Origin: a bacterium
GTDB taxonomy: Bacteria > Bdellovibrionota_C > UBA2361 > RFPC01
DNA: 64,000 bases
Direction: 5' to 3'
NCBI GenBank assembly: GCA_030428205.1
Contig: JAUIBK010000016.1
Coordinates: 11,454 to 75,453, forward strand
The notes under the pieces are model-generated. The model saw only the letters and a list, made by a program, of their open reading frames with translations. It searched no databases and had not been told where the DNA came from. The translations under genes and the position numbers were made by a program. Below, one piece after another: positions 2,611 through 54,995 of this stretch. Position 1 is the stretch's first letter, and every line of letters starts with the position of its first letter.

Positions 2611-3714
2611 ATGGCTAATATCCTTATTCTCGGCGTAAAAGTTCCTTTTACCAGTGGTGGGCAAGAAGTCTTAGTGCGAACGCTCTGTAAGGAGCTCAAC
2701 GCACGTGGCCACAACGCTGATGTTGTAGAACTTCCTTTTACTGTTTTTCCAAAGGAGAGTTTTCTTAATCAAGCTGCTATGTGGCGCGCCGTGGATCTCA
2801 CCACCTTTGGTGGAAAAGATGTGGATCTTGTTATTGCCACCAAGTTCCCAAGTTACTACGCTTCTCACCCAAAGAAGAGCCTCTGGCTTGTTCACCAGCA
2901 CCGTGCTTTGTATGACCTCTACGGTTCTCGTTATTCAGATATTTCTGATGATCCACGAGATGAAGCTTTGCGTCGGATGCTTGTTGAAGGCGACCGTAAG
3001 GTTATCGGCGAGTGTCAGTTCGTCTCGGGAATCTCTCAAAATGTAGTCAGTCGTCTTGAGAAGTATATCGATATTAAAGGCACAGCGCTCTATCCACCGC
3101 TTCCACAAGGAAGTGCATACCGACGGGGCGAATCTGAAGAGTATTTTCTCTCTGTTGGACGGTTGTGTGCCATCAAACGTGTTGATTTGATGCTCAAGGC
3201 GATGCCTATTGTTCACAACGTGGCAAAGCTTAAGATCGTTGGCACTGCTGATGAGCCTGGTGTTATGGAGTACTACAAAAACGAGATCGACAAGCACCAC
3301 CTCTGGGATAGGGTTGAGTTTCTTGGGCGTGTAAGTGACGAGGAACTTATTGATCTCTACTCGAAAGCGCTTGGAGTGTACTACGCACCACACGACGAAG
3401 ATTATGGATACGTTACCCTTGAAGCATTTGCTTCTGGCAAACCTGTACTTGCAGGAACAGATAGTGGGGGAGTCTTAGAGTTTGTCCGTCACGAAGAAAA
3501 CGGTCTTGTCGTAGATCCCACAAGTGATGCGTTTGGACACGCTGCAAACCGATTGATTGAAAACAAAGAGTGGGCTGCGCAACTCGGTGAAAACGGATTC
3601 TCGTTCATTCAAGAATCAGGGCTCTTAGAAAGTGGATGGGATACGGTTATTGATGGACTTCTCTCTCCACTTGAGAATACGTCATGTCAATCAGCTGTCG
3701 GATGTGGAGTATAA
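2611..3714 (+). CDS. Glycosyltransferase, GT4/GT1 family
   Basis: The C-terminal GT-B motif EAFASGKPVLAGTDSGGVLEFV...GLVVDP is present. GGGAGG RBS. Confidence 0.7.
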   Translation: MANILILGVKVPFTSGGQEVLVRTLCKELNARGHNADVVELPFTVFPKESFLNQAAMWRAVDLTTFGGKDVDLVIATKFPSYYASHPKKSLWLVHQHRALYDLYGSRYSDISDDPRDEALRRMLVEGDRKVIGECQFVSGISQNVVSRLEKYIDIKGTALYPPLPQGSAYRRGESEEYFLSVGRLCAIKRVDLMLKAMPIVHNVAKLKIVGTADEPGVMEYYKNEIDKHHLWDRVEFLGRVSDEELIDLYSKALGVYYAPHDEDYGYVTLEAFASGKPVLAGTDSGGVLEFVRHEENGLVVDPTSDAFGHAANRLIENKEWAAQLGENGFSFIQESGLLESGWDTVIDGLLSPLENTSCQSAVGCGV

Positions 3715-3720
3715 GTTTCT

Positions 3721-5052
3721 ATGTCGGCATCTGATAAACTCCGCATAGCTTGGTTTTCTCCTCTCGGCTCAGAGGGTGAGACGTCGATCTCTGCCTATGC
3801 AACAGAGACTCTTCTGCCGTATCTCACGGATCGTTTCGAGATAGAGCTTTTTCACGACTCTTTCTTCTCTCACAAGAAGTATCCGACGTATCACTACTTA
3901 AACGCGTTTTTGCGTGATAAGGAGCGTCCGTTTGATCTCTTCTTTTATCAGCTAGAAGACTCTCCGTGCACAAAATTTGTGAGAATGCACCTTGGGCTTA
4001 TGCCAGGGATAACGTGGTTTCACCACTTTTTTCTCTCTGATGATGGACCAGAACCAATTTTAAATAGTGGTTGGCAAGATACTGTGGATCACTTCTGTGG
4101 AAAGAGAACGGTGTGGCCTGAGCGAGGAAAAGAGTATACCCGTCCAGGTCCTCAAGCGTACCGCGAGGCAGGTCTTAGCTTTGCTTCGCTCTTTTCACTT
4201 GAGCGAGACCACGGTGAATACGAGAGACTTGTCACTCATAAGCTCCTTGCTGATAGTAATCAGCGCCAAAGTTTCTTTTTGCCACTACCTGTTTCAGAAG
4301 AAGTTTTCTCGTGTCGTAGTAAACAATCAACGACAGATGCTCCATTTCGTGTCGGATACTTTGGTACGCCACGTATTGAGCACCGAGCCCATAAGGTTCT
4401 TCAAGCACTCACAGAGAAGTATGAGCAAGAGGTGCAACTCCACTGGGTTGTCCCAGAAGAAGAGCTTGTGATTGCCCAAGAGAGACTTTCTGAGTTCGAT
4501 CTCGATGGTGTGCTCTATCCTCAAGCAACCCCTGAGCAGTGGAAGCAACTTCTCCCAGAGCTTGATTGTGCTCTGCATCCACTTTTTAGCGTTTTTGGAC
4601 AACCTGGAGCACCGCTTGCGATGAGCTTAGCTGCCGGCGTACCAACGGTTGTAACTGGATTTGGAAATACAGAGCGACTCGTAGACGAGGTGGCATGTAA
4701 GATTGAGCCAGGAAGTAGCGAAGCCACTCAGGTAGCCTCTGCGCTTCGAGAGTTGATGAAACAACCGAGACCGTTACAGAACAGAGAGGCCCAAGCCTTT
4801 GCTCGTGAGATGTACGATGTGCAAGGCGTGGCTGCTCAGCTCGGTGATACTTTTGAGTACCTAGTGAGCGGCGAACAAAGTTACCTACCACAAGCTATGA
4901 AACGGTGGCGCGCACTTGAGCAAGATGCAGCCGACTCGCTTCGAAAAGAAGTTTCCTCCTTTTTGCCAGCATCACTTTGGGAAGGGAAAGATGGAGAGTT
5001 GCTCAATCCTGTTTTCGAAGAACTCGGCTGGTCGTCGAAAGGAGAAGGGTAA
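3721..5052 (+). CDS. Glycosyltransferase-like protein, divergent GT-B fold
   Basis: The N-terminus RIAWFSPLGSEGETSIS and the C-terminal GAPLAMSLAAGVPTVV resemble GT1 architecture. Motifs are weak. Confidence 0.45.
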   Translation: MSASDKLRIAWFSPLGSEGETSISAYATETLLPYLTDRFEIELFHDSFFSHKKYPTYHYLNAFLRDKERPFDLFFYQLEDSPCTKFVRMHLGLMPGITWFHHFFLSDDGPEPILNSGWQDTVDHFCGKRTVWPERGKEYTRPGPQAYREAGLSFASLFSLERDHGEYERLVTHKLLADSNQRQSFFLPLPVSEEVFSCRSKQSTTDAPFRVGYFGTPRIEHRAHKVLQALTEKYEQEVQLHWVVPEEELVIAQERLSEFDLDGVLYPQATPEQWKQLLPELDCALHPLFSVFGQPGAPLAMSLAAGVPTVVTGFGNTERLVDEVACKIEPGSSEATQVASALRELMKQPRPLQNREAQAFAREMYDVQGVAAQLGDTFEYLVSGEQSYLPQAMKRWRALEQDAADSLRKEVSSFLPASLWEGKDGELLNPVFEELGWSSKGEG

Positions 5053-9831: not shown

Positions 9832-12800
9832 CTAAACCTCGGCAGGTGGCTCAATTGATATCCGTAGTGTACAGAATTCTTCGTCGTTTTGGATAGATCG
9901 TGCTCGCTGTTCTAGATGAAATCGGAAGCCGTTTCGATTTGCAAGCTGGTGAAGTCGCGCGGAGAAAAAGCGAGCACTTGTTGATTGTCGGGTATCAAGT
10001 TCCAGCCGTATCTCTCCACCTTCAGAGAGGTAGTGGTATCGGAGCAACTCTTCGAACCCTCTTGAAAGCCGAATGGCCGCTTCACGTTGCCTCTTACTTG
10101 AAGCAAAACTAGATACAACGATGAGTGGATTACCCTCTTCATCTCTTCCTTCGTAAGCCAAGAGGAAGGCATCCAGCTCACCATCTGGCTGAGTGTGCTT
10201 AAGAAGAAGTGAAGGTCTTCCCTTTTGATGATTGTTAATAGCTACAGCTGTAGCAAAGTGAAAGAGGTCTACCCCTTCATGATCGAGAACAACGGGATTA
10301 TCGGTATAAGCTATCCTTTCAAGTTGACGTACAGCTAACCAATCAGACTGCTCGATAAGAGAAACTTGAGGGGGCAGAGAAACCGGTGCGGTATATTTTG
10401 CTCTGCTCTCCTGAACCTCTCCTACCTCTCGAGAGAAAAGCCGTTCATTCTCACCAATCTTAAGCTGGATGACACTCTCTCCATAGTTATCAGAATATCC
10501 AATAGGGATTTCAGGTAAGAAGTTGTTCGGTTGTCGAGGAAGCTTTGTGACTACACTCGAGAATGCTTCACCGATCGGTATCCAGTCTTTGGAGGTATCC
10601 CAAGAGCTATTGAGACGATTCTGGTAATTTCCAAAGAAATCAGAGAGGAGTTCGGGGAGTAAGGTGGCTAGAGTGCCCTCTCGATAATTTGGATGCACTT
10701 CTAGGTTATCCAAAGCAAGTTCGGACTTTGCGCCAACTCGAATAATCTCATCACTTGCCTCAGCCTTACCAATGAGACCACGAAGTTGTTCAGATGCTGG
10801 AACCGGCACTCTAGAGACCCTCGTGAGCACACTTTGTGCAAAGGTTCGCTGCGAACCATCAGGCCTTTCAAGTCTAACAGTGAAAAAAGCAGCGCTCGGG
10901 TTCACCGTATAGCTGTTGGTTTTTCCTACACCAAATAAGGCGCATTCGGTTATATCGTTGGCAGCGATTACACCGAGCGGATCTGATGGAAGATGAATCT
11001 CTGCTATTACTGCTACTGGTTCGTCAGGAATCCCGAACTGAGGATTGAATAAGATCTCTCGCAGTTGCGCATGGAAGTGCTCGCGCCCAGAGGCGATCAT
11101 GAGAGGAGATGAGGTAATGCAATCAGGTTCTGAAATATACTGCTGAGGTGAAACACCATACTGAGATAGTAACCCTTTTACAGAGTGAAAGAGTTTCCCA
11201 CTATTTCGAGCAAGTGGCTTGTCACCCGACTGAGAGCTTCCGAGAGCTCGTTTCAACAGTTCATGTGGAGTTGCTTGTATTGCGTCTGGGTTCACTTCAT
11301 AACGAATTCGGAAAGGAGGGATACTTTTCGTCGCGTCTAGGGTGCCATCCATCCATGCAGTGCGAAGATCTTCTGGTGTAAGATCTAGGTGTTCGAACAG
11401 GAAGAGATTCGACACATTCCACTCTTTGTCAGCATCTTCATTGAGTGAACTGTCTGGGCGAGAAAAGAATGCTTCGGGAGCCGTGATAAGGTCCTGCACG
11501 GCAGAAAGATCTATCTTGCTCCCAGGATGACCTATGAGTGGGTCTATGAACTTTACTAAATTGAGGTCACCACTATCGACGACATTCTGAAGCTGTTCTT
11601 GCAAACCTGCTGTTAGAGCAAGCTCTTCCAGTTCAGCATACTGCCGAAGCTTTGCCCAGGATTGAAAGGGGGTGGTCTGTTGGCTGAGCTGTTTCGCAAG
11701 TTGCTGGAGATGTGGGAATCCGGAGAGAGTTGAGAGACGAGCCGATATTCCCTTTCTCTCAAAGGTACAGGTGTTTCCAATTTTCTTCAAAAGTTGAGTA
11801 GCACTCCCTCCGCTATAACTATGACCGTCCTGCTTGACCTGTGAAAGGATGTTGTGCGTAAAGGCTTCAAGTGAGAGTCCAGATTGGTGATAAAGCTTTA
11901 CGATAGCATGTATTCCGTGCAACGCAGCAACGGAGGAACGATTGGTATCTCGTAAGTACCAGAGTAATCTATCAGCTCCTAAGACTTCAGCTGCCTCGCG
12001 AAACTCTCCTTCAAGAGATTTTGCCATTTCCCATTGAGGAGAATACTTGAGAAGTGCTTCAAAGGTCGCTATTCCACCAAGTTCTGACGAATGAACGCCA
12101 TTGAAGTAGATCATGTCGAGATCAAGAAGTGAGATATGTAGTTTTTTTGCAGTAGGAAGGTCTGATTGGTCTACACAAGAGAACCACTCGGGATCTTCAA
12201 GCAAAGTTGCGACATACTCTTGATTCTCACGCTTGAAACGGACGAGTTCCTCAAGGGTCGTAACCTCAAATCCTTCCCTCAAGCATGCAATCACCTCGGG
12301 TGTGAAGCCTTCTAAAGCAGTAAGGTCATCTCCTAGGTAGTGTTCTGCTATTACTTGCGCGACTTGAGAGGAATGTCCTCCTCCTGCCATTTGAATCCCA
12401 ATTCGCTCGAAAGAAGAGCCTTCAAACTCAAAACAGCTCACCATCGCTTTCGCTGCGAGTTCTCTGACAGATTCAGGCTGAATGGAGAACTTCTCTATGA
12501 GATAATCGGCGCAACCAAATGCTCCTGCTGCAATCGCTCGCTCTACACTGAGAAGAACACTCTCTCTGATCTCTTCATGCTCCTCTAAGAGAAGCGTGGA
12601 AGTGTTATAGGCTGTAACAACTCGCTCGGGGTTCCAAGGGAAGGTGAGAGTTGAGGGGATTCCCGAAACAAGTTCACGCTGCACATCTTCGGCTCGGATA
12701 ATGTCATCTACTTCTTCTTTTGAAAGCGAGCAGCGATTGATTACATCGAGTGGATCGCCATCACCGTAAAGCCCCAATGTCTTCAGAAGTGCTTCTTTGA

Positions 12801-13017
12801 ACTCTCTCTGTTCGCCAGAGAGCCCTTGGAATGTTGCCCGTGCAAGATGAGGGTGCTGTATCCGAGTAAGGAGGTTCGTAAACTCTTCACTCGATATTGA
12901 TGTTTCAGCGCTGAGCGTCTGATCGCCCTCTGGGGCGTGGGGGAGAGAAGCTGTCTCTCCTCCTTCGTTATGAGTTATTAGCTCACCTAGTGGTGATAGA
13001 AGGGGAGTGTGCGCCAT
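9832..13017 (-). CDS. Large (1061 aa) acidic hypothetical protein, no recognisable domain
   Basis: A long uninterrupted ORF. It has no Walker, nuclease or other motif I can identify. Confidence 0.5.
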   Translation of the reverse strand: MAHTPLLSPLGELITHNEGGETASLPHAPEGDQTLSAETSISSEEFTNLLTRIQHPHLARATFQGLSGEQREFKEALLKTLGLYGDGDPLDVINRCSLSKEEVDDIIRAEDVQRELVSGIPSTLTFPWNPERVVTAYNTSTLLLEEHEEIRESVLLSVERAIAAGAFGCADYLIEKFSIQPESVRELAAKAMVSCFEFEGSSFERIGIQMAGGGHSSQVAQVIAEHYLGDDLTALEGFTPEVIACLREGFEVTTLEELVRFKRENQEYVATLLEDPEWFSCVDQSDLPTAKKLHISLLDLDMIYFNGVHSSELGGIATFEALLKYSPQWEMAKSLEGEFREAAEVLGADRLLWYLRDTNRSSVAALHGIHAIVKLYHQSGLSLEAFTHNILSQVKQDGHSYSGGSATQLLKKIGNTCTFERKGISARLSTLSGFPHLQQLAKQLSQQTTPFQSWAKLRQYAELEELALTAGLQEQLQNVVDSGDLNLVKFIDPLIGHPGSKIDLSAVQDLITAPEAFFSRPDSSLNEDADKEWNVSNLFLFEHLDLTPEDLRTAWMDGTLDATKSIPPFRIRYEVNPDAIQATPHELLKRALGSSQSGDKPLARNSGKLFHSVKGLLSQYGVSPQQYISEPDCITSSPLMIASGREHFHAQLREILFNPQFGIPDEPVAVIAEIHLPSDPLGVIAANDITECALFGVGKTNSYTVNPSAAFFTVRLERPDGSQRTFAQSVLTRVSRVPVPASEQLRGLIGKAEASDEIIRVGAKSELALDNLEVHPNYREGTLATLLPELLSDFFGNYQNRLNSSWDTSKDWIPIGEAFSSVVTKLPRQPNNFLPEIPIGYSDNYGESVIQLKIGENERLFSREVGEVQESRAKYTAPVSLPPQVSLIEQSDWLAVRQLERIAYTDNPVVLDHEGVDLFHFATAVAINNHQKGRPSLLLKHTQPDGELDAFLLAYEGRDEEGNPLIVVSSFASSKRQREAAIRLSRGFEELLRYHYLSEGGEIRLELDTRQSTSARFFSARLHQLANRNGFRFHLEQRARSIQNDEEFCTLRISIEPPAEV

Positions 13018-13589: not shown

Positions 13590-14732
13590 ATGAATTGCAA
13601 ACAAAAATGTCTTTTTATTCTTAAAAGTCTCTCGATAGTTTCACTTTTTCTTTTCGCTATGAGCCCTACTGCTTATTCAGAGGTTACCTGTGTGAAGGTC
13701 AAGTTGAATAAAAAGAAGAAGCCAAAGCTCGTTACTAAAGTTTTCCCAGATGCTTGCCCCGGAAAATTTGTACAGATTCAAGATACCAACGCAACTGTTC
13801 AAGGTGCGCAGGGGCCAAAGGGAGATACTGGGGCGCAAGGACCTCAAGGGCAGACTGGCCCGCAAGGCCCACAAGGATTGCAGGGGCTCCAGGGAGTGCC
13901 GGGAGTCGATGGGGCAGATCTGTATGAACGTACCATTGTCGTTCCTGCTGGAGAGGCGCCAACGGAGAATGGTAGTGCCCTTCTGAATGCTGCTTCTGGG
14001 CTTGTTGGAACTGTCGATGCTCCTTGGATGATTGAGCTTGAGAGCGGCACGTATGATCTTGGAGACCTTGTTCTTGAGCTTGGGACTTACGTGTCTCTTC
14101 GTGGAGCTGATACTCATAGCACTGTTGTGACAGGTTCGTCGTCCAGTGCAGTCGTTGATACAAATACTGGTAGCTCTCTTCGCAATATGTCAATTTTTGG
14201 AACTGCTATCACCACAAGCACCTTGTCTGGAGTTGTACGTGTTGATGACGACAACGATGTTCTTATTGAGAATGTCAAAATGACAAGCACTGGTCGTGGC
14301 TTGCTACTTGAGAATTGCTCTGGAGTGAAAATAAATCGTATCGACATTACAGCAGCTGGTTATGCTATTAATACGGATCATTCATCGCTTGATACCACGA
14401 TTTCAGATTCTCAAATAACCTCAACCGGTGATTCTGGTGTCGATTTTGGTACTTCGACTTCCCATACTATCGTTGAGCGTTGTGTCGTTACTGCCACGGC
14501 AATAGATCAGAGTGCTCTGCGAAGTAGTGGAGGAAGTGGTATCGTTCGTCATTCAACTTTGATTTCAAGCTTTGGTGGCACACTTGAAAGCTCAAATGGG
14601 AACACTGACATCGTAATCTCTCAAACGTATGTTGATGTTGAAGATTCTTTCAACATGCATTTTACAGGGGGAACAGCATCTTGTACTGCTATTTCCACAG
14701 ACAGTACATTTAGCACAACTACTTGTCTTTAG
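13590..14732 (+). CDS. Secreted collagen-like triple-helix repeat protein with a C-terminal right-handed beta-helix (pectate-lyase-like) domain
   Basis: Signal peptide, 15 G-X-Y repeats (GAQGPKGDTGAQGPQGQTGPQGPQG...), then Thr/Ser/Gly-rich beta-helix-type repeats. Confidence 0.65.
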   Translation: MNCKQKCLFILKSLSIVSLFLFAMSPTAYSEVTCVKVKLNKKKKPKLVTKVFPDACPGKFVQIQDTNATVQGAQGPKGDTGAQGPQGQTGPQGPQGLQGLQGVPGVDGADLYERTIVVPAGEAPTENGSALLNAASGLVGTVDAPWMIELESGTYDLGDLVLELGTYVSLRGADTHSTVVTGSSSSAVVDTNTGSSLRNMSIFGTAITTSTLSGVVRVDDDNDVLIENVKMTSTGRGLLLENCSGVKINRIDITAAGYAINTDHSSLDTTISDSQITSTGDSGVDFGTSTSHTIVERCVVTATAIDQSALRSSGGSGIVRHSTLISSFGGTLESSNGNTDIVISQTYVDVEDSFNMHFTGGTASCTAISTDSTFSTTTCL

Positions 14733-14828: not shown

Positions 14829-17378
14829 TCAGGTATTACTTTCTATAAGATAGTTGTCGTCATCTGAGGCATCTTCTTCAGAGCATGCATATGTTTTTAC
14901 TGGAAGTTGTTTCGCAGCACCAATCGCTTGCTTAGCGAGTCTATGAATACGTTGGAGCTTTTTCTTTCGCTTTGTGCCTTTGAGGGCAAGGCGTAGTACT
15001 TTCTTCGCTTGTGACTTTAATGAGCGTATTGAATTTATGTACGTTTTCTTCTCTGAGCGAGTCTTCTTTTTTGTACAGAGAAGGGAGTCGTTGCATTTGA
15101 GAAGTTGCAGTTTCGTAACATCTCTACTTGCGCCTATCGCTTGTTCGTGAAGGAGGTTAAGAGTAGTAGACTCTTCAAGCAGTGCAGTCTGGTTGCTGCT
15201 TGACGTGTATGCTTTATGAGCAAGAGAAAGAGCAAGTTCTACCATGGCGGTGAGTTTTCGATTCGCTTTGATTATTTTCTTGCTCTTATTTTTTGTCTTA
15301 CAGTTATAATCTGCGAAATTTCTTTGTCGTACGACGACTGCTGGAAGGACTTCGCCTGTTGAGAGAGCTATGGAGTTGGTAGCGAGTGTGAGATCCTCAC
15401 GGTCTATGCTCAGGTTGTAGTCTCCTGCTGGGACATTCTGAAATGTAAATGTGTTTCCTTCTTCCAGAAGAGTGACGAAGGAACGAGGATGAGAAGATAT
15501 TCCACTCTCAGAAGTTGCGTCTGCTTCTCCTCCTGTTCTTGGAGTAAGGTGAGCTTGGGTGCCTGAGAGATCCGAAGAGGCTCCACCGACAGTACCACGA
15601 ACATCATAAAGGTCTTCTCCATCCTCTTGGCTTGTAGGTGTAGGAGCGGGAAGAGGTGGCGCATCGGGGAATTCCGCTGGTTGTACAACTTCGGTGAGAG
15701 CCGTAAGCTTTTCGTTTTCCCCAAGAGTAAGAAATGGACCATAGAGAAAACTACCAGGATGAGGGATGACAAATCGAATCGTATTCGTATAGCCATAGTA
15801 TGCTACATAAGGAGTTTCAGCGACTGATGTATCAAGATGTTGAATGCCAACTATTCGAGGAAATTCTTCTGGGTGAACACCGATACTGCCATACCAGTCC
15901 CCATTCTCGTAATCAAAACTTGGAAGTTCTTCTCTCCGAACCCAATAACCAGCGGTGTGCACGAGCTGATCATCATCAAAACTAGCGAAGCTCGAAATAG
16001 GGCTTATGAAGTTGACAAAGCTACTTGATACGCTTTTATCACCTCGATCGACTGTTTTATAGAGATAGAGGTTTCTGAAGTAATCATCCGACACAGCTTT
16101 TTCGACGAAAAGGACCGCATCACCATAGAATCCAAGACTTGAAAGAAGGGTAGAGTCTCCATTCAAAGAGAGGAGAGTTTCTTCATCGTCTCCATCTACC
16201 AAGTCAACACTCACTATGGTCTGTGAATCACTGCAGTAGTAGAGTCGGCCATAAATATCATCAGCTAACAGGCAGTAGACCGAAGAGTTTTGAAGAGTGA
16301 GAAAGTCTTCCACGTTTGTGCCATCTGCATCGGCCATTTTAATTTTGACGGTATTTCCGCTTGCATCCACCCAATACAGTTTTTCTGTCTCCACAGAATA
16401 GCTCATTGCCTTTACGTCTCCGATAGTATCGGAATCAAATACAGGCACGATTTCTTTCGTTATGTTTGTCCAAAATATTCGGGAAGTATTGAGTTGTGTA
16501 TCACGAACAGCAAAGTACATTCTTGTATCATCATAGATGCTCGAGGTGGGCTCCTGTGTGTCCCCTGTAGTAAAGTTCGCTATGATATCATAACCTTTTT
16601 GAGAAGCGACTGCGCTTAGAGAAGACCCATTTGTATTGACACTGCTGAGAAGTGTCCCTGAAGAAGGTGCGCCAATGAAGAGCAGCTTTTGAAGAGTGTT
16701 ATCATATGTAATTCCACGGGGAGAATTTGTACTTGAAGAGAGGAATGCTTCAGGAGAACTTCCATCGGTATTACATCGATAGATGGCATCTTTTGTATGG
16801 TTCGACCAATAGAGTTTTCCATTGAATAGAGTAAGATTGGTGAGGGTGTCTCCTTGGGCAATATTGTCGAAGAGAGAAGATTGATTGAGTCCATCACTGA
16901 GGTTCACACGCTCGATTCCTTCGAGGCTTGCGTAGTACAGAGTGTTTGTTGACTCGCTTACGAACAGACCATAGGGGTCTGACATACCAACAAGAAACAG
17001 CTCTTTGTTGCTACCATCTAGATCGGCTCGATAGATAGCTGCTTCCTGTGGATCGCTCCAGAGTATTTTATTATTTGTCAGGTCGAGTGCGATATCGTTT
17101 ATGGAGCTACTTGCTGAGGCAAAAATGGTGACGATATTGCTCCCATCCCGATTGGCTCGTTTTATTGAGGGGCCAGAGTCACTGTAATACAGGTGGTTAT
17201 TCTCAGGATCGTATGCGAGGGCTCTCGTTGCTGACGCAATGAAGGTTGAAGTTACGCTAGTCTCGCTGTCAACTAGTTTAATATCGCTGCCTGTAGCAAC
17301 AAGGATGTCCGCTGATAAGGGAAGCGACGATAGAAGGAGCAAAGTAAAGAGTATTCGAAGGAGGCTCATATATTTCAT
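14829..17378 (-). CDS. Secreted YWTD/LDL-receptor class B beta-propeller repeat protein with a Lys-rich C-terminus
   Basis: Signal peptide. Repeats of type LYYSD...IKRANRDGSN, ILWSD...IYRADLDGSN and LYWSN...IYRCNTDGS. The C-terminal tail is KK-rich. Confidence 0.6.
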   Translation of the reverse strand: MKYMSLLRILFTLLLLSSLPLSADILVATGSDIKLVDSETSVTSTFIASATRALAYDPENNHLYYSDSGPSIKRANRDGSNIVTIFASASSSINDIALDLTNNKILWSDPQEAAIYRADLDGSNKELFLVGMSDPYGLFVSESTNTLYYASLEGIERVNLSDGLNQSSLFDNIAQGDTLTNLTLFNGKLYWSNHTKDAIYRCNTDGSSPEAFLSSSTNSPRGITYDNTLQKLLFIGAPSSGTLLSSVNTNGSSLSAVASQKGYDIIANFTTGDTQEPTSSIYDDTRMYFAVRDTQLNTSRIFWTNITKEIVPVFDSDTIGDVKAMSYSVETEKLYWVDASGNTVKIKMADADGTNVEDFLTLQNSSVYCLLADDIYGRLYYCSDSQTIVSVDLVDGDDEETLLSLNGDSTLLSSLGFYGDAVLFVEKAVSDDYFRNLYLYKTVDRGDKSVSSSFVNFISPISSFASFDDDQLVHTAGYWVRREELPSFDYENGDWYGSIGVHPEEFPRIVGIQHLDTSVAETPYVAYYGYTNTIRFVIPHPGSFLYGPFLTLGENEKLTALTEVVQPAEFPDAPPLPAPTPTSQEDGEDLYDVRGTVGGASSDLSGTQAHLTPRTGGEADATSESGISSHPRSFVTLLEEGNTFTFQNVPAGDYNLSIDREDLTLATNSIALSTGEVLPAVVVRQRNFADYNCKTKNKSKKIIKANRKLTAMVELALSLAHKAYTSSSNQTALLEESTTLNLLHEQAIGASRDVTKLQLLKCNDSLLCTKKKTRSEKKTYINSIRSLKSQAKKVLRLALKGTKRKKKLQRIHRLAKQAIGAAKQLPVKTYACSEEDASDDDNYLIESNT

Positions 17379-19750: not shown

Positions 19751-19811
19751 TAGTGGCAAGGGCAATCACTTCTTAGCCTTTTTGAGATAAACCTCAATGA
19801 GAAAAAGTGGC

Positions 19812-19844
19812 GGGGTGCTTCTTGTGTCAACAGGAAGCACCCCC
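19812..19844. terminator. Candidate bidirectional terminator hairpin between convergent genes
   Basis: ggggtgcttc-N13-gaagcacccc, a perfect 10-bp stem. There is a short T-run on the minus-strand side. Confidence 0.4.
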
Positions 19845-19872
19845 ACACCACTGTTACCTAAGAGAGAAGAAG

Positions 19873-20734: not shown

Positions 20735-20784
20735 CTCACCTGGCATCAAAAGTGGCATGCTCTCCACTGTTGATGCCAGGTGAG
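20735..20784. promoter_or_regulatory. Perfect 15-bp stem-loop in the 5' region of the 19873-20652 gene
   Basis: ctcacctggcatcaa-N20-ttgatgccaggtgag. The loop contains an inner gtgg/ccac stem. Confidence 0.4.
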
Positions 20785-21424
20785 TCTCATGAGCTAAAAC
20801 AATATGAAAGAAGTGATTGCACCTCGCTCAGAGGCTTTACTGCGGGTGAGGTGTTTGGGCTGTAAGAAGAGAATTCTGACAGGGGAGCAAAAAGCAGCTG
20901 AGTGAAGTGCAACAGGTGTGCATCTACTCTAGGAATAAGTTTTGGGAGTTAAAGAACGCTCCCCCCATCTCTTCATGTACGAAGATATGCTTAGTGTAGG
21001 ACAGCAGTAGGGGGCTACTCAAGTGTTCATGGGGGCAACGTACCCGTCTTGAGTAGGGAAATGGAGGGCACGTTCAAGTGCAAGGAGGAGCGGGGATGCT
21101 TCTCGTGGGCTGTTTTGGTGGTGGAGCTGGCCATGGTGGACAGGAGTAATAGAGCTTTAATATCAGTGGGTTAGATTGCCCTTTGTGCTGCTCTCTATGT
21201 TCTATCCAGAAATTGACTTCTTGGGGTGGACTTGCTACCTTTCGCACAAGAAAGTTTGAGTGATTAGAAGCACTTGGTTAGGTGCTTAGGGATAAGAGTT
21301 TTTTTAGAGTCTCTTGCTAGGGATTGTAAAAAAACTTCTGTGTACCTTCGCACCGTACCATACTTCTCGCTCGTTAACTTCTCACGTATTACATGTCATT
21401 TGTTGATCAATAAGGATTCATTCC

Positions 21425-24121: not shown

Positions 24122-24196
24122 ATTGAATCGCAGAGGCGCTCAGAGGAACACAGAGGAGAGCGATAGAACATCCTCTGTGCGCCTCTGTGATTCAAT
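24122..24196. terminator. Long imperfect hairpin between the convergent pnp and cls genes
   Basis: attgaatcgcagaggcgc ... gcgcctctgtgattcaat 18-bp outer stem. Inner cacagagg/cctctgtg stem. Confidence 0.4.
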
Positions 24197-35568: not shown

Positions 35569-35633
35569 TCCGTTACTCCTTTCGCTGGAGAAAGCCCTCT
35601 TTTGTTTGCACCCATGCAAACAGTAAGCTCAAA

Positions 35634-35677
35634 GGGGCCCATGAGAGTTGTGTCTCAACACAAGTCTCATGGGCCCC
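35634..35677. promoter_or_regulatory. 19-bp stem-loop between the upstream gene and csrA. It may be a leader element or a terminator.
   Basis: ggggcccatgagagttgtg-tctcaa-cacaagtctcatgggcccc, with one mismatch. Confidence 0.4.
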
Positions 35678-35846
35678 TCACTCTCAAGGATGTAAAGTAA
35701 CAGATGCGTTACAGGAGTAGCTCTCAAATCGAGAGCGAAAGAAACCCTATACGCTTTTGTCCCCAGTGAGGGGAGTATCGAGGCGATTCAAATCTTAGTC
35801 AAGTTCGCAGGAATATAGATGGGGAGGTTGGAGTTCGTCGGGAGGG

Positions 35847-38145: not shown

Positions 38146-38181
38146 ATTTTTGTGGGATCTTGCTAGCAGTAATGGGGGAGT

Positions 38182-38343
38182 GAGGCGGAAGCGGATACCA
38201 AGAATAAGACCAAAACGAAGATATAGGTCAAGGCGGAGGCTGAGAAAAAGATAAAGAGCAAGGAGATCCTATTTCTCAGCCTCTATCTCAGTCTTCGTCT
38301 AGATCTTGGTTTTGGTCTTATTCTTGGCCTTGGTCTCCGCCTC
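38182..38343. repeat. Long imperfect palindrome of 6-bp tandem units, copy A. The same family is at 52864-53082.
   Basis: Arm GGCGGA AGCGGA TACCAA GAATAA GACCAA... pairs with TCTTGG TTTTGG TCTTAT TCTTGG CCTTGG TCTCCG, with a perfect 18-bp core. Confidence 0.6.
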
Positions 38344-38365
38344 TAAAAAACAAGCAAAAGTTCTA

Positions 38366-40102: not shown

Positions 40103-40239
40103 GGCCGGGAGAATACCTTTTTCTCTTCTTGCGTGTCCACAGCACTTGCCTTTTTTTCTGTGATCTGAGAATGTTAGCCTTCGATTTGATGGTACCCCTC
40201 ATGTTAGAGAGGGAGGAATTTTTTTGAGTTAACCAACTG

Positions 40240-40440
40240 ATGGCAAAAGCAGCGAAAGAAACCACTTTTCTCGTATCATCTGAGGGGACAGGGTATTTCT
40301 ACACGAACCGACGTAATAAGAAGAAGAACCGTGGCGATAGCAAGGTTTCTGTTCGTAAGTACGACCCCATTGCTCGAAAGCATGTGCTTTTCGAGGAGAA
40401 AAAACTCTCAAGGCTAAAGAAAAAGTACGTGCAGGCTTAG
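40240..40440 (+). CDS. rpmG: 50S ribosomal protein L33 with a C-terminal extension
   Basis: MAKAAKETTFLVSSEGTGYFYT...KYDPIARKHVLF resembles L33. Confidence 0.7.
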   Translation: MAKAAKETTFLVSSEGTGYFYTNRRNKKKNRGDSKVSVRKYDPIARKHVLFEEKKLSRLKKKYVQA

Positions 40441-51493: not shown

Positions 51494-52831
51494 ATGAGTG
51501 AAAGAGCTGTGCTTGACGGCAATGAGAAACCCTCACCTTTATGCTCGAGTGAGCTTGGGGGCTGTGCGATGAGCCAAGAGCATCGATCTCTCGGAAAGCA
51601 AGTCCGCTCTGATTTCCCGTTCTTTGGTGGGGATAGAGACCAAGAGTCATCAAGAATAGCGTTTCTTGATTCGGCGGCGAGTGCTCTTAAGCCACAAGTT
51701 GTAGTGGATCGCATGTCTCATTACTTGCTCCATGAGCATGCAAATATCCATCGAGGTGCATACAAGCTTAGTGCTGATGCTACGGCAGCATACGATCTCG
51801 CTAAACTCCAAGTTGCTCAATTTCTCTCAGCCCCATCGGCTTCTTCTATTATTTTCACACGAGGGACTACAGAGGGAATCAACCTGCTGGCTCATAGCTT
51901 TGGAGAGAGGCTTGAGAAGGGTGATAGAGTCTTGCTCACTACGCTAGAGCATCACAGCAATATTGTGCCTTGGCAGCTTCTTGAAATGAGAAGGGGAGTA
52001 GGCGTGTCGTACGCTGATATTCGAGATGACGCCGCTCTTGATCTCGCGGATCTCTTTGCAAAGCTTCGCCAAGAGAAACCAAAATTACTTTCGATTACCG
52101 CCGTTTCAAATGCGTTTGGGACTATTATTCCACTAGAGAAGATTATTCCAGTTGCACGAGAGGTCGGTGCGCTTGTTCATGTAGATGCTGCTCAAGGAAT
52201 TGTGCACTTTCCGCTTGATGTTCAAAGTCTCGATATTGATTTTCTCACCTTCTCAGGTCACAAGATCTACGGCCCAACGGGAATTGGTGTCTTGTATGGA
52301 AAGCCGGAGCTTCTGGAAGCGATGCCTCCATACCAAGGCGGAGGTGACATGATCCATGAGGTCACGCTAGACGGTTCAACCTGGGCTGAATCACCTCGTA
52401 AATTCGAAGCAGGTACGCCTGCTATTGCTGAAGCTATTGGACTCGGTGAGGCCTTAGCCTATGTCACCGCACTTGGACGACAAGAGCTTCTTGACTATGA
52501 GTCACAATTGTTTGAAGAAGCTTTTGAACTTCTGTCGCGTGAGCCTGGGGTTACTCTTTATGGCCCTGCCACGAGCATTCAAAACGAGAGAAGCAAAGTA
52601 CAGACGTCAATCTTACCTTTTACCGTAGAAGGTGTGCATCCACATGATATTTCAACTATAGCGGACAGTTTCGGTGTTCAGATTCGTGCTGGCCACCACT
52701 GTGCTATGCCGGCGTTACGGAGACTAGGAATCCAGTCGACGGGAAGAGCGAGTATTGGTGCGTATACTATCTTAGAAGACTTCGAACTTCTGTGTGAAGC
52801 TATTCGGCGGGCGAGGAAGACTTTTCAGTAG
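51494..52831 (+). CDS. sufS: Cysteine desulfurase, SufS/CsdA-type class V aminotransferase
   Basis: RSDFPFF, FLDSAAS..KP, SGHKIYGPTGIGVLYG (PLP lysine) and a C-terminal catalytic Cys region. The true start may be the internal Met at 51569. Confidence 0.8.
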   Translation: MSERAVLDGNEKPSPLCSSELGGCAMSQEHRSLGKQVRSDFPFFGGDRDQESSRIAFLDSAASALKPQVVVDRMSHYLLHEHANIHRGAYKLSADATAAYDLAKLQVAQFLSAPSASSIIFTRGTTEGINLLAHSFGERLEKGDRVLLTTLEHHSNIVPWQLLEMRRGVGVSYADIRDDAALDLADLFAKLRQEKPKLLSITAVSNAFGTIIPLEKIIPVAREVGALVHVDAAQGIVHFPLDVQSLDIDFLTFSGHKIYGPTGIGVLYGKPELLEAMPPYQGGGDMIHEVTLDGSTWAESPRKFEAGTPAIAEAIGLGEALAYVTALGRQELLDYESQLFEEAFELLSREPGVTLYGPATSIQNERSKVQTSILPFTVEGVHPHDISTIADSFGVQIRAGHHCAMPALRRLGIQSTGRASIGAYTILEDFELLCEAIRRARKTFQ

Positions 52832-52863
52832 ATCGTGAGCTCCCTAAAGTTTTTCACTGTCTA

Positions 52864-53082
52864 GGTCTTAGCCTTAGTCTTAGTCTTAGTCTATAATCTT
52901 GGTCTTGGCCTGATTCTTAGCGTTGGCCTCCGCCTATAAAAACTCCCACTTTCACCTCAGCATGCACGCGTACGGGAACGTCTACGTTAACGTTTCATTT
53001 TAAATGCGAGGATCAGGCTGATGCCAAGAATAGGACCAAGACCAAGATGTAGACTAAGGCTAAGACTAAGGCTAAGGCTGAG
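52864..53082. repeat. Long palindrome of 6-bp tandem units, copy B. The arms are separated by an 88-bp spacer.
   Basis: Left arm CTTAGC CTTAGT CTTAGT...TCTTGG TCTTGG. The right arm is its reverse complement (CCAAGA...CTAAGG CTAAGG). The spacer contains acgttaacgt, gcatgc and acgcgt palindromes. Confidence 0.6.
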
Positions 53083-53254
53083 GGGGGTAGGGGGTTATCT
53101 TTTGGGCGGGGGAGGGAACCTAAAGCTCCCAAGATACCCCGGTAAAAAATACCGGGATATCTTAGTTGCATCAGGAACAGGACAGGCAACCGTGCATCGC
53201 ACCTATGCATGGCACCAAACGTTCTGCAATTATTGGGGGTGAAAGGACTGTTGT

Positions 53255-53902
53255 TTATACCACCTGATCAACAACAATACTTCCGGATTGAGCAAGCACC
53301 TCTTGTGAAACTTGTTCCGATACTTCGGTTTCAACCTTGAGAGGTTCAAGGCCGAGATCGGCTCGTTTTTGTGATTCGTATGCTATGAGTTTTTCTTCGA
53401 TCAGAGATTTGGTTTCTTCAATCCCTGCTTGAACTCCTTCGATCTCAAAAGCTCCGATGCCTTCGAGGATATCAAATGCTTCGCCGTATCCTGTTCCTAT
53501 TCCACTACGGATGGTGGACATAAACGAATCTAGCAGCTCTTCGCCTTCAAGCTCGGGGTTCTGTTTTGCATACACATCAAAGAAGGCTGTAGCACCTTGC
53601 ACGATACGCTCAGCCGTTGCTTCGGGAGTATGTTGTTCAGGTTGTAGCGACTCAACTCCGTCTGGAACTTCCGATGCGAGAATTTCGTTTAGCTTTTGAA
53701 TGACTTGATCTGTTGTAATCGTCAGTGAAGTTGGAAGATCAAGCGGGGAAAAGGACACCTTAGCTGCTGGTTCTCGCTCAAACTTAAGAGCTGAGTCGAG
53801 CACGTATTTGTCAGCCTGGAGTTTTCCAGTTTCACTTGATACGTTGGTGAGGGATTTAGGAACGGTTGTTCCACTTTGGATGAGAGATTGGCTACCTTCC
53901 AT
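53255..53902 (-). CDS. Hypothetical acidic protein
   Basis: ORF with a Glu-rich C-terminal half. No recognisable domain. Confidence 0.4.
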   Translation of the reverse strand: MEGSQSLIQSGTTVPKSLTNVSSETGKLQADKYVLDSALKFEREPAAKVSFSPLDLPTSLTITTDQVIQKLNEILASEVPDGVESLQPEQHTPEATAERIVQGATAFFDVYAKQNPELEGEELLDSFMSTIRSGIGTGYGEAFDILEGIGAFEIEGVQAGIEETKSLIEEKLIAYESQKRADLGLEPLKVETEVSEQVSQEVLAQSGSIVVDQVV

Positions 53903-54098: not shown

Positions 54099-54905
54099 AT
54101 GGAGCTAGCCCGTGATTTACATGCAGACATATTGCCGAAGAAGGACCTAACCCGCATGGCATGTACTCACCTTGACTGTCATACATTTCGTGGTGCAAAC
54201 GCGCTGCTTGATACGTCCTCGTTTGTGTCTTTCAATCCCCATTGCTCACCAGGTAATCTGGTCATCGCTGGTGCTCGCGCCGTGAAACAGAGTATTGGTA
54301 GTCAGGTTGCTTGTAAGCTCTCGCTTGAACATTTTGTAGAAGGCATCCTCGACTATTTCTCCGGTAATTTTAGTGATGAAGATTTTGTTGAGGCTGAGCC
54401 AAGCCTTCGCGCTCTCGAAGCTGCGTTTAAACGTGCAAACAAGAGCGTATACTCTTTTGGCCACAGCCTTGCTGCTGGTGGGAGAATGGCTGCTGCCTTT
54501 ATCGGATTAGTTCTCGAAGAGGAAACAATTGCTTCTGGAAGGGTGGGAAACGGCTCAGCATATCTCTACCGTGCAGGTGAGCTTTTTCCTTTTTTTGATA
54601 GCGCTGATGAGGCTACCCAGGAACATCAGGAGGGTTATCTCGGAACGCAATCGCTTGTATCTGTCGAGCTTGCAAGTGTCGCTATTGAGCCAGGGGATGT
54701 GCTCTACGTTTTCTCGCAAGAGCTAAGTGAGAGCGAAGAGGCCGAACTTATATCCCTCTCTCAAGATATGGATTTTAATAGTCCGGGAAATCCTATCTCT
54801 GAAATTTGTCGTTTCCTCTTTGATTCACCCGATGATGTCGCCTTTGCCACGTTGACACGGGTAGGGCCGGAAACGATCTATCTCGATAATGTTGTTGGCG
54901 GATAA
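54099..54905 (+). CDS. PP2C-like Ser/Thr phosphatase fold protein, possibly degenerate
   Basis: SGRVGNGSAYLYRAGEL resembles the PP2C ANVGDSRAYLLRDGEL motif but lacks the metal-binding Asp residues. Confidence 0.4.
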   Translation: MELARDLHADILPKKDLTRMACTHLDCHTFRGANALLDTSSFVSFNPHCSPGNLVIAGARAVKQSIGSQVACKLSLEHFVEGILDYFSGNFSDEDFVEAEPSLRALEAAFKRANKSVYSFGHSLAAGGRMAAAFIGLVLEEETIASGRVGNGSAYLYRAGELFPFFDSADEATQEHQEGYLGTQSLVSVELASVAIEPGDVLYVFSQELSESEEAELISLSQDMDFNSPGNPISEICRFLFDSPDDVAFATLTRVGPETIYLDNVVGG

Positions 54906-54933: not shown

Positions 54934-54995
54934 TACCACTTTGATAGAGTTTTTGATCCTGTGAAAACAGGATCAAAAACTCTATCAAAGTGGTA
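54934..54995. repeat. Perfect palindrome with 28-bp arms and a 6-nt loop
   Basis: taccactttgatagagtttttgatcctg-tgaaaa-caggatcaaaaactctatcaaagtggta. No flanking T-tract. Confidence 0.7.

Follow-up and report, generated by a model that had tools for sequence, protein, structure and literature searches.

A hexamer-periodic inverted repeat between convergent sufS and DUF5610 genes shares an ~80-nt unit with a second locus 14.5 kb away

Results

The stretch of DNA analysed here, 64 kb in length and referred to below as the window, is ordinary chromosome that carries ligA, gltX, pnp, tyrS, acnA, sufS and a flagellin gene, together with many proteins without a Pfam family. A SufS-type cysteine desulfurase gene (51494–52831, plus strand; Pfam Aminotran_5, 3e-128; homologues named SufS) and a DUF5610 gene (53255–53902, minus strand, identified with Pfam) converge in it, and the spacer between them holds an imperfect palindrome of ~220 bp (52863–53082), hereafter copy B, the base of whose hairpin lies ~25–30 nt past the sufS stop. 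The original prediction had placed a palindrome at a convergent junction here, and the two genes confirm this setting. A second hairpin with related arms, copy A (38172–38351), is found 14.5 kb from copy B. Two minus-strand genes flank it, one for an Smr-domain protein, whose stop faces the hairpin, and one for a sodium:alanine symporter, whose start does; the base of copy A is ~15–23 nt past the Smr stop. Of the window ORFs, 49 were scanned with Pfam, and they included no transposase, integrase, invertase, Y1/RAYT or reverse transcriptase. Rfam, tRNA and tmRNA searches gave no match over the whole window, and at relaxed thresholds Rfam returned just generic miRNA-precursor hairpin models, far under the gathering level.

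Both arms of copy B were recognized by repeat search, periodicity and profile as instances of one unit, which we call U. The left arm (52863–52944, plus strand) is the forward unit; it is pyrimidine-rich and reads (CTTAGY)4 CTATAA TCTTGG TCTTGG CCTGAT TCTTAG ... CCTCCGCCTATAAAAA. The sequence first listed for this arm was right except that it had one CTTAGT too few, the true beginning being CTTAGC (CTTAGT)x3 CTATAA. The right arm (52997–53082, minus strand) is the unit reversed and appears on the plus strand as a purine-rich tract, ...CCAAGA CCAAGA TGTAGA (CTAAGR)4 CTGAG, that ends at 53082; it matches the left arm at 55/64 positions. The claim that one arm is the reverse complement of the other was thus borne out in an imperfect form: the inverted-repeat search paired 52867–52893 with 53050–53076 at 96% (27 nt) and 52896–52929 with 53015–53048 at 79% (34 nt). 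The arms also pair in registers offset by 6 or 12 nt, with 86–96% complementarity, and the hexamer arrays may leave several pairing registers open to them. Because pairing runs inward through CCTCCGCCTATAAAA / TTTTAAATGCGAGG to about 52944/52997, the loop is ~52 nt and not the 88 bp initially assigned to the spacer. Tandem Repeats Finder gave periods of 6 and 12 in each arm, and in a lag-6 autocorrelation of the whole 64 kb such periodicity appeared solely at copy B and at copy A (38279–38346).

The predicted fold of copy B is far more stable than that of shuffled sequence, and the palindrome proposed for this place is real. RNA of 52855–53095 folded to -119.6 kcal/mol on the plus strand (z -11.9) and to -100.4 kcal/mol on the minus strand (z -8.6), with 0/200 shuffles as good in either case; the DNA fold of the same segment reached -56.9 (z -9.2), which no shuffle equalled. 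The stem is ~75 bp long and imperfect. Lone units of ~80 nt folded no better than shuffles (z 0.06, -0.07, 0.15 and 1.25 for the four units, the first value being that of the copy B left arm); since the units do not fold singly, pairing requires an inverted partner.

The central loop of copy B (52945–52996) carries overlapping 6-bp palindromes and three ACGT cores, and its sequence has no relation to the copy A loop. The slightly wider spacer of 85 nt (52930–53014) contains six 6-bp palindromes (GCATGC, ACGCGT, CGTACG, GTTAAC, AACGTT and TTTAAA) where ~1 is expected, a number reached nowhere else in the window, in agreement with the restriction-site-like density described for it at the outset. 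Palindromes of 10 bp occur 59 times in the window against 62 expected, and the one in copy B is unremarkable. The spacer shows no unusual structure (z 0.14), no promoter-like site was found by scanning the loop and the element, and a consensus terminator scan picked up a weak 7-bp stem within the loop. Restriction avoidance as an explanation for CTNAG and the spacer 6-mers was dropped, as CTNAG occurs at the expected frequency in the window and most of the 6-mers are not avoided there; just GTTAAC (3 against 17 expected) and TTTAAA (10 against 23 expected) are depleted.

Alignment and profile identify the copy A left arm (38172–38253, minus strand) as the unit reversed, the most diverged of the four, and the right arm (38271–38351, plus strand) as the unit forward, with its 5' (CTYAG) end toward a loop of 18–48 nt. 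Copy A folds to -87.8 kcal/mol on the plus strand and -77.3 kcal/mol on the minus strand (z -8.6 and -7.6). With the four arms co-oriented, the consensus is 5'-(CTYAGN)3-5 CTAnA TCTTSG TYTTGG YCYKAT TCTTRG ... CYTCCGCCT(A/C)TAAAAA-3', and 42 columns of the alignment are invariant; among them is a core, common to both loci, that goes beyond simple periodicity (CTAnATCTTGGTYTTGGYCYKATTCTTRG...CCTCCGCCTMTAAAAA). Identity of the unit between loci is 75–86%, with 64/78 for the copy B left arm against the copy A right arm. This pair scored 80, whereas the maximum in 1000 hexamer-block shuffles was 58 (0/1000); among the other five arm pairs four gave 0–2/1000, and the two left arms gave 36/1000. A profile built from copy A only found both copy B arms at E 3.6e-11 and 1.1e-10, the next match in the 64 kb having E 4, and single-copy profiles in general recovered the other copy at E 1e-10 to 1e-12 for 3/4 arms and at 3e-05 for the copy A left arm. 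The similarity of the arms, for which low complexity had been raised as a possible cause, is therefore well beyond what low complexity gives, with a score of 80 over the shuffle maximum of 58 and E values near 1e-10.

The two copies are nevertheless arranged in opposite ways, and the view of them as two copies of one palindrome had to be given up. Copy B runs unit, loop, inverted unit, so that the CCGCC (3') ends face the loop, and is pyrimidine-first on either strand; copy A runs inverted unit, loop, unit, with the CTYAG (5') ends facing the loop, and is purine-first on either strand. As the copies are inside-out of each other, they are not whole-element copies, and the repeated entity is a single ~80-nt unit, not the palindrome. 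Homologous arms at two loci make this a repeat family, as had been proposed, and the word "dispersed" in that proposal refers to n=2 documented loci.

The nearest other SufS homologues are 56–59% identical, and the few of them that carry names are labelled as Bdellovibrionales or Deltaproteobacteria MAGs, which gives a tentative placement. One of these relatives, L033 (GCA_030431715.1), has the gene order symporter, Smr, TyrRS and, further on, SufS with DUF5610, and another, L030, keeps the SufS and DUF5610 pair. The unit profile (nhmmer) found no match on the syntenic loci L030–L033, but the position past sufS is occupied by other hairpins, unrelated to copy B: in L030 a hairpin with 50-nt arms (2763–2875; 17 nt past the sufS stop; -60.6 kcal/mol, z -7.6), and in L033 a 13-bp stem 9 nt past the stop. 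Because the spacer between sufS and the DUF5610 gene is 110 nt in L033 and 423 nt in the window, copy B appears to be a lineage-specific gain in a conserved hairpin slot. The same length of 110 nt means that L033 can have no counterpart of the ORF at 53021–53242, one of the two ORFs over copy B (the other being 53013–53210, minus strand) that had been called translation artefacts; this ORF has no Pfam hit and indeed no counterpart in L033, so that the artefact reading stands. A coding reading of the units was rejected as well, with stops in most frames and neither a Pfam hit nor a counterpart in relatives for 53021–53242.

In the L033 spacer orthologous to that of copy A, between Smr and symporter genes, a hexamer-periodic tract of its own was observed at 1724–1771 (CCTTGA CCTTAA CCTGAA CCTATA CCTGAA); homology of this tract to the unit was not detectable, and it gave no significant hairpin.

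A G-run tract, G6 TA G5 N9 G3 C G5 A G3 (53082–53118, plus strand), abuts the right arm of copy B as described earlier, and its three runs of at least five G at 53082–53112 are the sole such cluster in the window. The equivalent that had been claimed for copy A was not found in that place: copy A has a single G5 run, which abuts the opposite end of the unit. Counterparts of the tract are present in the spacers of L033 (GAGGGGGCGAGTAGGGGTTGTTA, 11358–11384) and L030 (GGGGGCGGGGGAGAG / CAGGGGTTAT, 3117–3190), with a modest significance of 12/1000 shuffles for L033. As both relatives have these counterparts without the repeat, the tract seems to be ancestral to the intergenic region and to lie outside the repeat, so it is not a feature of the family. 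The hairpin of the slot follows the sufS stop and precedes the G-run, abutting the latter in the window and ending ~29 nt before it in L033. The G-quadruplex motif in its standard form (four runs of at least three G, loops of 1–7 nt) is absent at 53082–53112; the candidate sequence, GGGGGGTAGGGGGTTATCTTTTGGGCGGGGGAGGG, fits under relaxed settings only (loops up to 12 nt, one of them 9 nt). A G-quadruplex role is a weaker reading than a 3'-end hairpin: the tract is not a family feature and the motif needs the 9-nt loop.

Several minor features accompany the tract. The G-rich sequence is read as C-rich in the transcript of the DUF5610 gene; three genomes (56–59% SufS identity) have it between sufS and that gene, and it may represent a conserved element of the 3' UTR, a site of Rho loading on the minus strand or a G4. 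A 7-bp hairpin, CCGGTAA-AAAAT-ACCGGGA (53139–53157), lies between the G-tract and the DUF5610 stop and may be the proximal 3' hairpin of the DUF5610 gene itself. A motif TTCTGCAAT(TA)TTGGGGG occurs immediately past the DUF5610 stop, at 53221–53238 in the window and at 11385–11400 in L033; it gave the sole significant spacer alignment between the two (score 25, shuffle maximum 24), and apart from this motif and the G-run the homology of the orthologous spacers of L033 and L030 with that of the window was not significant. Two overlapping 7-nt direct repeats, CCTAAAG (52843–52849 and 53119–53125) and AGCTCCC (52838 and 53124), bracket a 270-nt segment holding copy B and the G-tract, and could be a duplication footprint or chance.

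Long hairpins without a U-tract are frequent in the window. At least five others, mostly past gene ends and each of unique sequence, were found besides the two copies, and strong stems are present in 4/10 of the convergent spacers. The strongest simple hairpin is a perfect 29-bp inverted repeat with a GAAA tetraloop (54934–54995), 29 nt past the stop of a PP2C-like gene (54099–54905), and no U-tract follows it; a 26-bp hairpin at 24122–24196 and long hairpins at 35633–35678, 19807–19848, 20735–20784 and 21297–21336 likewise have none. Short tandem repeats were seen in the arms or loop of three hairpins, at 24122–24196 in the window, 2763–2875 in L030 and 1629–1696 in L033 (CAGAGG three times at about 9–10 nt, CACAGAA twice and GCAAAGAG twice). 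Building hairpins from repeats may be a habit of the lineage and not peculiar to the family of copies A and B. A stem with a 79-nt loop was also noted at 40106–40226, in the divergent spacer between tyrS and an E1-E2 ATPase gene and beside a probable rpmG ORF (40240–40440).

A scan for further copies with a core pattern of 19 bases, ATCTTNGTNTTGGNCNNATTCTTNG, gave 8 hits in genome contigs of species representatives, 21 in JGI metagenome contigs and 1 in IMG/VR viral contigs. All these matches were single, in coding or unrelated low-complexity DNA, and none had extended similarity; blastn against plasmids and phages returned nothing. The unit family is so far documented by the two loci alone. 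One metagenome contig in the set (Ga0307377_10377479, L025, 1–1058) consists over its entire length of (GGTCTT)n arrays broken about every 150 nt by GGAATTGGTCATGAAATCTnnTTTTAATGCTGA, and its plus strand encodes at least five tandem small ORFs of the form MKSxFNA(E/D)S(WS)n...RNWS* whose stops and starts overlap as ATGA. This odd contig matched through low complexity only and is probably unrelated to the unit. In a more distant relative, L035 (58% SufS identity), a 306-aa protein (3506–4426) has a weak Y1_Tnp match of the IS200/RAYT type, and no repeat like those of copies A and B is near this gene.

Discussion

The reading we favour, to which we give an even chance of being right, is that copy B is a co-transcribed bidirectional 3'-end hairpin, serving as a terminator or an exonuclease barrier and derived from a lineage-specific dispersed repeat. 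We infer that transcription enters the element from sufS on the plus strand or from the DUF5610 gene on the minus strand, and in either case the RNA would fold into the imperfect hairpin of ~75 bp. Most likely this hairpin would mark and protect transcript 3' ends, either as a bidirectional terminator that lacks a U-tract, as a barrier to 3' exonucleases, or as both; the stem is possibly long enough to be a substrate of RNase III. The slot itself would be functional and its filler a genome-specific dispersed repeat, which after the Smr gene, at copy A, is used inside-out. As for the spread of the repeat, single units were probably duplicated or recombined and then paired with an inverted sibling.

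A terminator role had been suggested for the palindrome from its location. This putative role fits the position 25–30 nt past the sufS stop, the hairpins that fill the same slot in relatives and the U-less hairpins elsewhere in the window. A canonical intrinsic terminator has a short G+C-rich stem, a loop of 3–8 nt and an immediate U-tract. Copy B is not of this type because no U-tract follows its stem on either strand (the flanks are GAGGGGGG on the plus and CTAGACAGTG on the minus strand), and the consensus scan found no canonical terminator at either end of the palindrome. Bidirectional intrinsic terminators without a U-tract, called "I-shaped", are closer. Copy B resembles them in being symmetric, in lying between convergent genes, in its predicted stability on both strands and in having no U-tract, but their usual stem is 5–20 bp, whereas that of copy B is ~75 bp with a 52-nt loop and is made of a repeat common to another locus. 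A stem of 75 bp is far larger than termination needs, and this counts against a terminator. The arms themselves give a weak indication of selection on their pairing: the two arms of a copy have changed jointly in 3 alignment columns, and 2 columns show the opposite pattern. Mismatches on the plus strand are G.U in 14 cases and A.C in 4, an excess that cannot be interpreted as to the strand under selection because the GC skew is positive throughout. The palindrome-dense 52-nt loop of copy B stays outside the 3'-end hairpin explanation and is unexplained by it.

If copy B does act at transcript ends, an uncultured lineage would fill its transcript-end slots with very long U-less hairpins, at least two of which were assembled from one shared unit in opposite polarities. 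The slot would then be a natural example of a conserved position whose filling sequence turns over, and repeat families could yield structures that resemble terminators while not being REPs or MITEs in the classical sense. For annotation, ORFs over such elements can be flagged as artefacts and the unit profile can be applied to the remaining genome. With two loci, the finding is modest and opens no long-standing question.

Copies A and B belong to a known kind of sequence, the extragenic repeats that form hairpins at the ends of genes. REP, BIME and REPIN sequences of gamma-proteobacteria are dispersed extragenic repeats that follow genes, form inverted pairs with variable linkers and fold into hairpins; their units are imperfect palindromes of 20–40 nt that occur in both relative orientations, and the proposed roles include termination and mRNA stabilisation (PMC3333891, PMC3116915, PMC3733652). 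A conserved GTAG or CGTC tetranucleotide at one end is given as the tag of the REP unit (PMC3733652). The units of copies A and B are similar in forming inverted pairs, in both orientations and with variable linkers (52-nt against 18–48-nt loop), and they differ in being ~80 nt long, hexamer-periodic and non-palindromic, in being documented at two loci and in having no RAYT gene among the 49 Pfam-scanned ORFs of the 64 kb. The end tag is also absent: GTAG occurs in the copy B right arm alone and CGTC in the copy A right arm alone, both internally, and the aligned position of the unit reads NTAG. The unit is thus REP/BIME-like in logic and not a member of the class.

Bacterial MITEs such as Correia/NEMIS, ERIC and RUP are intergenic elements of 100–250 bp with terminal inverted repeats, which are co-transcribed with flanking genes and form a long RNA hairpin. 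Copy B is likewise intergenic, with inverted arms and a long RNA hairpin, but its arms make up nearly the entire element, and copies A and B have no common ends, topology or internal sequence, copy A having its arms inside-out and a different spacer. The STRR sequences of cyanobacteria are intergenic, lineage-specific tandem arrays of a short period of 7. Copies A and B are also intergenic, lineage-specific arrays of short period; here, however, the period is 6, the motifs are others, the arrays form inverted pairs and the host lies outside the cyanobacteria.

The strongest competitor of the 3'-end hairpin is a selfish non-autonomous mobile element of MITE- or REPIN-like character that would be mobilised in trans by a transposase encoded at another place in the genome and whose position after genes would simply be a tolerated insertion. 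We consider this possible but rather unlikely. The occurrence of the unit at two loci 14.5 kb apart with 75–86% identity speaks for mobility, as does the 110-nt orthologous spacer of L033, against which copy B looks gained, and the head-to-head and tail-to-tail inverted pairs recall the BIME clusters of REPs (PMC3333891). The opposite topologies and unrelated spacers nevertheless argue against a single shared element with defined ends, and the units are non-palindromic and have no conserved GTAG or CGTC tag. The direct repeat CCTAAAG at 52843–52849 and 53119–53125, the sole flanking one, could be read as a target-site duplication, but it lies 14–37 nt outside the arms instead of adjacent to them, its two copies would have the ancestral G-tract between them, and for a shared 7-mer the chance expectation is ~0.1. 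Similarly, a weak Y1_Tnp-domain protein exists in the more distant L035, whereas the 49 Pfam-scanned ORFs of the window include no transposase, integrase or Y1/RAYT gene, and no copy was found in the genome, metagenome, viral, plasmid and phage collections. Other mobile or rearranging elements were set aside: against attC sites, retrons and invertible promoters stand the absence of an integrase, a reverse transcriptase and an invertase from the 49 scanned ORFs, ends that do not resemble attC core sites, and the unrelated spacers of the two loci.

A bolder reading, which we regard as unlikely, would make the unit a new non-palindromic dispersed module that builds large hairpins with an inverted sibling in either polarity and provides the genome with a self-propagating set of modular, register-tolerant, U-less hairpins at 3' ends, possibly with the help of an unknown mobilising enzyme. 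Such a module would be an analogue of REP/BIME in function and distinct from them in mechanism and structure.

The periodicity of the arms also raises the idea, in our judgement an improbable one, of an array to which a multimeric protein binds cooperatively on the 6-nt repeats, with the palindromic loop as an operator. Its sites would be the UAG/AAG triplets that recur at 6-nt steps in RNA, or CTNAG/CTTGG boxes on DNA, and candidate binders would be a TRAP- or HutP-like RNA-binding protein, Rho through YC dinucleotides, a nucleoid protein or a partition protein. The periodicity of 6 nt is strict, extends over ~60 nt per arm and is unique in the window, the short palindromes of the copy B loop are unusually dense, and in copy B the arm transcribed first, on either strand, is rich in pyrimidines and has one YC in each hexamer. 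In copy A, however, transcription from either side meets the purine-rich arm first, and a single-strand binding logic common to the copies fails for this reason. The strong pairing of the arms would in any case occlude single-strand sites, extrusion of a DNA cruciform is unlikely with a spacer of 52–88 nt, and no candidate binding protein is present among the scanned window ORFs. A binding array is possible, with the periodicity as its sole support.

A recent local inverted duplication of a functionless microsatellite by replication template switching, with convergence accounting for the similarity to copy A, we take to be very improbable; hexamer arrays are prone to slippage, the L033 spacer that corresponds to the one of copy A contains a hexamer-periodic tract of unrelated sequence, and other hairpins of the lineage contain short tandem repeats, but comparison of the sequences appears largely to refute it, as the loci share a non-periodic core, hexamer-block shuffles gave 0/1000, and arms that differ by 14–25% are not very recent duplicates.

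Apart from the repeats, the window encodes proteins that are an unusual complement for a segment of bacterial chromosome: an ORF of 1061 aa without a Pfam hit (9832–13017, minus strand), a collagen-repeat/beta-helix protein (13590–14732, plus strand), an LDL-receptor class B repeat protein (14829–17378, minus strand) and a eukaryote-type DDAH (59171–60094, plus strand).
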